This document shows, one piece after another, positions 24,747-25,084 of a DNA stretch of 64,000 bases (within the stretch, counting starts at the first letter, position 1; each line of letters starts with the position of its first letter). The notes under the pieces were generated by a model that saw only the letters and a list, made by a program, of their open reading frames with translations, was not told the DNA's origin and did not search any database. Position numbers and translations under genes: made by a program. The stretch is from assembly GCF_003334405.1 (NCBI RefSeq), contig NZ_QOWM01000006.1; one strand, written 5' to 3'. This stretch comes from Escherichia coli. GTDB taxonomy: Bacteria; Pseudomonadota; Gammaproteobacteria; Enterobacterales; Enterobacteriaceae.

Positions 24747-24781
24747 CGTTTCACTCCATCCAAAAAAACGGGTATGGAGAA

Positions 24782-24845
24782 ACAGTAGAGAGTTGCGATA
24801 AAAAGCGTCAGGTAGGATCCGCTAATCTTATGGATAAAAATGCTA
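24782..24845 (-). promoter_or_regulatory. PBAD core promoter (-10 tactgt / -35 ctgacg) with AraC half-sites araI1-araI2
   Basis: Minus strand tagcatttttatccataagattagcggatcctacctgacgctttttatcgcaactctctactgt, the canonical araBAD promoter sequence. Confidence 0.75.
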
Positions 24846-24855
24846 TGGCATAGCA

Positions 24856-24935
24856 AAGTGTGACGCCGTGCAAATAATCAATGTGGACTTTTCTGCCGTG
24901 ATTATAGACACTTTTGTTACGCGTTTTTGTCATGG
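24856..24935. promoter_or_regulatory. CRP site / araO1 / araC promoter region (divergent ara control region)
   Basis: Position between araI and araC; contains tgtgacg...caaataatca CRP-like motif; boundaries approximate. Confidence 0.45.
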
Positions 24936-25040
24936 CTTTGGTCCCGCTTTGTTACAGAATGCTTTTAATAAGCGGGGTTACCGGTTGGGTTAGCGAGAAG
25001 AGCCAGTAAAAGACGCAGTGACGGCAATGTCTGATGCAAT

Positions 25041-25061
25041 ATGGACAATTGGTTTCTTCTC
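25041..25061. promoter_or_regulatory. araO2 AraC operator (DNA-looping site) in araC leader
   Basis: atggacaattggtttcttctc about 270-280 bp from the PBAD start region. Confidence 0.6.
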
Positions 25062-25084
25062 TGAATGGTGGGAGTATGAAAAGT

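Follow-up and report, generated by a model that had tools for sequence, protein, structure and literature searches.

Is the DNA between the divergent araB and araC genes of this Escherichia coli genome the native arabinose control region with its repression loop, and which parts of it have been held constant among related species? The ara locus is the case on which the concept of gene regulation by DNA looping was founded, and the PBAD expression system, now in wide use, was derived from it. The window (the whole stretch of DNA that was analyzed, 64,000 nucleotides in length) contains a spacer of 338 bp with 43% G+C at 24747-25084, which is the entire interval between the araB ATG and the araC ATG. 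A preliminary description, made from the letters of this DNA, had claimed that the spacer is a divergent araBAD/araC region with araI, CRP (cAMP receptor protein), araO1, and araO2 sites. The genes on both sides of the spacer and the probable translation signal of araC are as follows.

20638-21333, minus strand: araD (L-ribulose-5-phosphate 4-epimerase); NCBIfam equivalog above the cut-off
21533-23035, minus strand: araA (L-arabinose isomerase); NCBIfam equivalog above the cut-off
23046..24746, minus strand: araB (ribulokinase), the first gene of araBAD; open reading frame with a match to NCBIfam TIGR01234 (943 bits, cut-off 583), annotated as araB in MG1655
25070..25074, plus strand: probable araC ribosome-binding site GGGAG, recognized from the sequence; GGAG is kept across 24 species
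25085..25963, plus strand: araC (292 aa); match to NCBIfam NF007860 (512 bits, cut-off 208), RefSeq annotation, and cross-species conservation from ATGGCT on

The reading frames of araC and of araB, araA, and araD are arranged divergently around the spacer, and all pass the NCBIfam equivalog cut-offs. Two other in-frame ATG codons were considered as the start of araC, namely 25034 (the mechanical start of the open reading frame, in the flank of araO2) and 25076. Both were rejected, as the annotation, the family match, and the conservation all point to 25085.

For a check of the claimed control region, the preliminary description had named alignment to the characterized araC-PBAD sequence. A 651-bp stretch centered on the spacer has 100% identity to E. 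coli K-12 MG1655 and to numerous further strains. Of 5426 complete E. coli genomes, 5400 contain it, and the genes annotated beneath every match are araB and araC. At a larger scale, 24.9 kb of the window aligns collinearly to E. coli chromosomes (100.0% identity among the best matches listed), and the gene order around the spacer is that of MG1655 (rapA, polB, araDAB, araC, yabI, thiQPB, sgrR). Taken together, this collinearity, the identity to K-12, and the annotated genes indicate a native chromosomal locus carrying the sequence used in classical work. The region is thus almost certainly the araC-araBAD control region of E. coli at its native chromosomal place, with PBAD and Pc as its divergent promoters. 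A comparison with the K-12 locus found the spacer and both flanking gene starts, the site positions, the 211-bp loop, and the neighborhood to be identical, and revealed no differences. The spacer serves as a landmark that places the window at approximately minute 1.4 of the E. coli chromosome (polB-araDAB-araC-yabI-thiQPB-sgrR). Several other elements in the window were found with Rfam and are expected for this chromosome region.

21393-21458, minus strand: naRNA4/REP-type element between araD and araA
30209-30308, minus strand: TPP riboswitch upstream of thiB
32065-32291, plus strand: SgrS sRNA
38271-38420, minus strand: leucine operon leader

A further Rfam match, to PssrA ("Plasmid-encoded Shigella sRNA A"), was found on the plus strand at 59922-60011 and scores 105.5 bits, well above the gathering score of 69. 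This match runs from the 3' end of ftsA through the ftsA-ftsZ spacer into the first codons of ftsZ, an odd place on a chromosome for a family described as plasmid-encoded.

Engineered araC-PBAD cassettes occur in public assemblies at approximately 99.4% identity, so that the spacer might in principle have come from a pBAD-type vector or a contaminant instead of the native locus. The copies concerned are in two 6.5-kb contigs (L002:1-3456 and L003:1-2469), filed under Photorhabdus namnaonensis and Xenorhabdus szentirmaii, and in two small plasmid records (KY563785.1 and NZ_CP072462.1) that look like the same cassettes. A pBAD-type cassette and the window have a common core of araC, Pc, araO2, araO1, CRP, araI, and PBAD from 24762 rightwards. 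Between 24762 and the end of araC, L002 and L003 differ from the window at two positions only (24987 G>T and 25069 T>C). Left of 24762, a synthetic ribosome-binding and cloning site replaces the araB leader, and the araBAD genes are absent. Judged by these sequence features, L002 and L003 hold cassettes of the pBAD vector or promoter-exchange type, which are not native genes in those assemblies. The pBAD vector string differs from the window at one base, 24987. Because L002 and L003 carry this difference too, it is a true polymorphism between vector and K-12 rather than a mistake in the sequence of the window. For the spacer itself, an engineered origin is hardly credible. On the araB side, the spacer leads directly into the native araB leader and the araB, araA, and araD genes, which polB follows, and beyond araC come yabI, thiQPB, and sgrR, all as in MG1655. 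The collinear 24.9 kb has 100.0% identity among the E. coli chromosome matches listed, whereas the vector copies have a synthetic ribosome-binding site, two substitutions, and no araB.

For a comparison among species, a scan with one genome per species provided 80 loci that encode AraC relatives, and araB lies divergently upstream in 76 of these. The spacers of these 76 Enterobacteriaceae species and of the window were aligned with MAFFT (77 sequences), and conservation is given as the mean identity to the window base. The PBAD transcription start, which we take to be at 24773 (EcoCyc; Lee and Carbon, 1977), is the A of ACCCGTTTTTTTGG and lies 27 nt upstream of the araB ATG. With this start, the center of araO2 falls at -275 and the araI half-sites extend from -35 to -72. 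Indirect support for this position comes from the literature, because a distance of 275 bp between araO2 and the start (PMC12133099) agrees with it and the Reg-Seq AraC footprint peaks at -35/-50 and -60/-75 (10.1101/2025.05.13.653802) agree with the araI span. The elements on the araBAD side are as follows.

24747..24773, minus strand: araBAD 5' untranslated leader; coordinates from the sequence, with the assumed start position
24782..24787, minus strand: PBAD -10 hexamer TACTGT (-14 to -9), identified from the sequence; invariant or nearly so in 11 genera
24806..24811, minus strand: PBAD -35 hexamer CTGACG (-38 to -33), with an 18-bp spacer to the -10; CCTGAC is invariant in the cross-genus alignment
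24808..24824, minus strand: araI2 half-site TAGCGGATCCTACCTGA (-35 to -51), an exact match to the published site; 88% conserved among 77 sequences
24829..24845, minus strand: araI1 half-site TAGCATTTTTATCCATA (-56 to -72), an exact match to the published site; 83% conserved

The araI1 and araI2 sites are 17-bp direct-repeat half-sites located 21 bp apart in all 77 sequences, and the araI1 sequence found here is the one printed in PMC2241862. The preliminary description had placed the araI half-sites over the -35. This is correct for araI2, which shares 4 bp with the PBAD -35 hexamer in agreement with the four common base pairs reported previously (PMC11983282), but not for araI1, which is located wholly upstream of the hexamer. 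All five AraC half-sites of the spacer have one orientation, on the araBAD-sense (minus) strand. A generic scan of 24650-25200 for sigma-70 promoters and terminators returned no hits and missed both PBAD and Pc; this result is uninformative because both promoters are weak and activator-dependent.

Further upstream of PBAD are the CRP site and the two half-sites of araO1.

24859..24874, unstranded: CRP site TGTGACGCCGTGCAAA, centered at -93.5, with 2 mismatches to TGTGAN6TCACA
24882..24898, minus strand: PBAD-proximal araO1 half-site CGGCAGAAAAGTCCACA (-109 to -125); 91% conserved
24903..24919, minus strand: PBAD-distal araO1 half-site TAACAAAAGTGTCTATA (-130 to -146); 92% conserved

The CRP site is the most conserved block of the spacer (96%) and is located 29 bp from araI1 in all sequences. 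Both araO1 half-sites are exact matches to the published ones, and the PBAD-proximal half-site (24882-24898) keeps a distance of 53 bp to araI1 in no fewer than 70 of the 73 long-spacer sequences. A weak second CRP-like site, CGTGATTATAGACACT, with 3 mismatches and a center at -131.5, overlaps araO1 at 24897-24912. Footprinting by Ogden and coworkers in 1980 reportedly found that CRP protects a second region, from -121 to -146.

The araO1 operator sits in the PC promoter (PMC11983282), for which the spacer has two candidates. The first candidate consists of TAGACA (24905-24910) and TGTCAT (24928-24933), separated by 17 bp, and its transcription start would be near 24939. In the cross-species alignment, this -10 element (TGTCAT) is conserved only within Escherichia. 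The second candidate consists of TGGACT (24884-24889) and GACACT (24907-24912), also separated by 17 bp, and is located inside the two conserved araO1 half-sites, with a start near 24920. No Pc transcription start was found in the literature text searched.

The remaining part of the spacer contains the distal operator and the DNA that separates it from araO1.

24920..25039, unstranded: loop DNA, very probably also most of the araC 5' leader; 39% mean conservation over 120 bp
25040..25056, minus strand: araO2 half-site GAAACCAATTGTCCATA (-267 to -283, center -275), an exact match to the published site and the distal anchor of the repression loop

The preliminary description had put araO2 approximately 270-280 bp away. 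This holds as the distance to the araBAD start (-267 to -283) but not as the size of the loop, which is 211 bp from araO2 to araI1, center to center. The string that it quoted for this operator, atggacaattggtttcttctc at 25041-25061, takes in 16 bp of the 17-bp half-site; it is offset by one base and overshoots the half-site by 5 bp. A separation of 210 bp between araO2 and araI1 has been given in the literature (PMC11983282). The value of 11.1 bp per turn is the repression periodicity of the ara loop according to the statement in PMC7445879 that cites Lee and Schleif (1989), and with this value 211 bp corresponds to 19.0 helical turns, which puts araO2 and araI1 on one face of the helix. The position of araO2 relative to araI1 thus matches the known repression loop and would be consistent with the DNA-looping architecture that had been claimed. 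In addition, araO2 ends 28 nt upstream of the araC ATG. Because this is downstream of either Pc candidate, araO2 is very probably located inside the transcribed araC leader, as the preliminary description had stated and in accord with what is established for this locus.

For this exact sequence, AraC occupancy at 24808-24845 and 25040-25056 has been reported experimentally, and disruption of araO2 (25040-25056) or a 5-bp insertion in 24920-25039 is reported to change the uninduced activity of PBAD. The looping/unlooping mechanism was established on identical DNA (PMC2241862, PMC4760080, PMC11983282), and its steps may be assigned to the sites above. When arabinose is absent, the subunits of one AraC dimer would occupy araI1 and araO2, and the resulting loop would shut PBAD and, in part, Pc. 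The araI1 half-site would act as the high-affinity site that is filled in the repressed and induced states alike. When arabinose is present, the AraC dimer would occupy araI1 and araI2, with araI2 filled only in the arabinose-bound form, and AraC at araI2, over the -35, would contact and recruit RNA polymerase. The cAMP-CRP complex at -93.5 would help to open the loop and to activate, and would be required for full activity. Finally, AraC at araO1, within Pc, would curb the synthesis of araC (autorepression). The rhaSR-rhaBAD system, with the AraC-family regulators RhaS and RhaR, is similar in having a divergent regulator and catabolic operon, two direct-repeat half-sites over the -35, and CRP upstream (PMC11983282). 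However, rhaSR-rhaBAD has neither a distal operator nor a repression loop (PMC11983282), whereas the ara region has araO2 and looping.

All sites named in the preliminary description are thus at their expected positions in a sequence identical to that of K-12. Its view of the locus as textbook material of low novelty was justified as well, given that the sequence is that of K-12 letter for letter; the control region is already known, and there is nothing new in its textbook architecture here.

Among the Enterobacteriaceae species, 71 have a spacer of 334-340 bp, one species has 326 bp, and the remaining four have 215-216 bp. The operator and CRP sites are 83-96% conserved, compared with 39% for the 120-bp interval between araO1 and araO2, and the interval between araO2 and the araC start has a mean identity of 47% in the 77-spacer alignment. 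The spacing of araI2, araI1, and CRP is the same in all 77 sequences, and the spacing of the araO1 half-sites is constant wherever these are present. Nearly all insertions and deletions are located in the poorly conserved loop stretch or in the short flanks beside the two start codons. The distance from araO2 to araI1, with the araI1 position corrected in two loci, is 210-213 bp in 72 of the 77 sequences. Such a combination of a fixed araO2-araI1 length, conserved anchors, and a variable interior is what a loop bridged by a protein should leave behind, since the anchors and the length would be constrained while the intervening sequence would not.

The AraC half-sites are degenerate, and the resemblance of araI2, araO1, and araO2 to such half-sites could be suspected of being due to chance, with araI1 as the only real site. 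A scan of the window for TAGCN7TCCATA with two or fewer mismatches found no enrichment of the degenerate motif, with 40 hits compared with 37.9 expected from shuffled sequence. The only perfect TAGCN7TCCATA in the window is araI1 (approximately 0.12 expected); araO2 has no TAGC box, and araI2 is without a good match to TCCATA. A repeat finder applied to the spacer also did not group the half-sites as one family, because they are too degenerate. Given the null result of the motif scan, the identification of the sites rests on the experimentally dissected K-12 locus, to which the spacer is identical, and on the phylogenetic footprint. Both are difficult to reconcile with chance. Every weak site forms a sharply bounded conserved island at a fixed distance from araI1 across 76 species, araO2 stands out with 95% conservation between flanks of 39% and 47%, and mutations in araO2 and araI2 alter expression in a published saturation mutagenesis of the ara sequence (PMC11983282). 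We therefore regard the chance explanation as extremely improbable and treat araI2, araO1, and araO2 as AraC sites together with araI1.

One other part of the spacer stands out within the poorly conserved loop DNA.

24960..24979, unstranded: short conserved island TGCTTTTaataaGCGGGGTT within the loop DNA and araC leader; peak of conservation in the MAFFT alignment

In ungapped alignments anchored on araO1 or araO2, this island reaches up to approximately 1.6 bits per column, and it is located at a fixed distance from both operators in approximately 70 species. To our knowledge, no function has been assigned to it. A conserved RNA fold was not found in the araC leader (RNAalifold, -0.26 kcal/mol). 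The sole pairing predicted comprises 4 bp between the flank of araO2 and the ribosome-binding site, and it lacks convincing covariation. An RNA element was thus ruled out as an explanation of the island, as there is no conserved structure. A small upstream open reading frame of 16 codons from 24959 was also rejected, since its start codon and frame are not kept between species. Conceivably, the island is a site for a DNA-binding protein or an element of a promoter, in either case undescribed, that acts on araC expression or on loop geometry.

The spacers that depart from the common length differ in the sites that they contain. The four short spacers (215-216 bp; L055:1285-1500, L056:1286-1500, L059:1286-1500, and L066:1286-1500) belong to RIT691, Pluralibacter UBA7423, Enterobacteriaceae bacterium 89, and "Citrobacter sp. 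18056" (Enterobacteriaceae). These four have retained araI2, araI1, and CRP, and both araO1 half-sites are missing. An araO2-type half-site is found 88 bp from araI1 and approximately 36 nt from the araC ATG. Pc must accordingly be arranged differently in these short spacers. The 326-bp spacer of Enterobacteriaceae bacterium UBA5654 (L026:1175-1500) has kept every site, with 199 bp between araO2 and araI1, approximately one helical turn shorter. With a helical repeat of 11.1 bp, the distances 211, 199, and 88 bp correspond to 19.0, 17.9, and 7.9 turns, which are all near-integer values; at 10.5 bp per turn, 88 bp corresponds to 8.4 turns. That natural spacer variants would preserve helical phase is suggestive and no more, because there are only two independent events. 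The joint reading, in which the island in the loop is functional and the natural loop variants are phase-preserving, is accordingly a tentative one that we consider rather unlikely to hold in full.

For the biology of this family, the footprint of the ara spacer illustrates selection on the length of the loop rather than on its sequence. If helical phase is indeed preserved among the natural variants, nature would have repeated the classic spacing experiments in these spacers. Moreover, the variants in which araO1 is missing and the loop is 88 bp could be of interest to those who engineer or model AraC looping.
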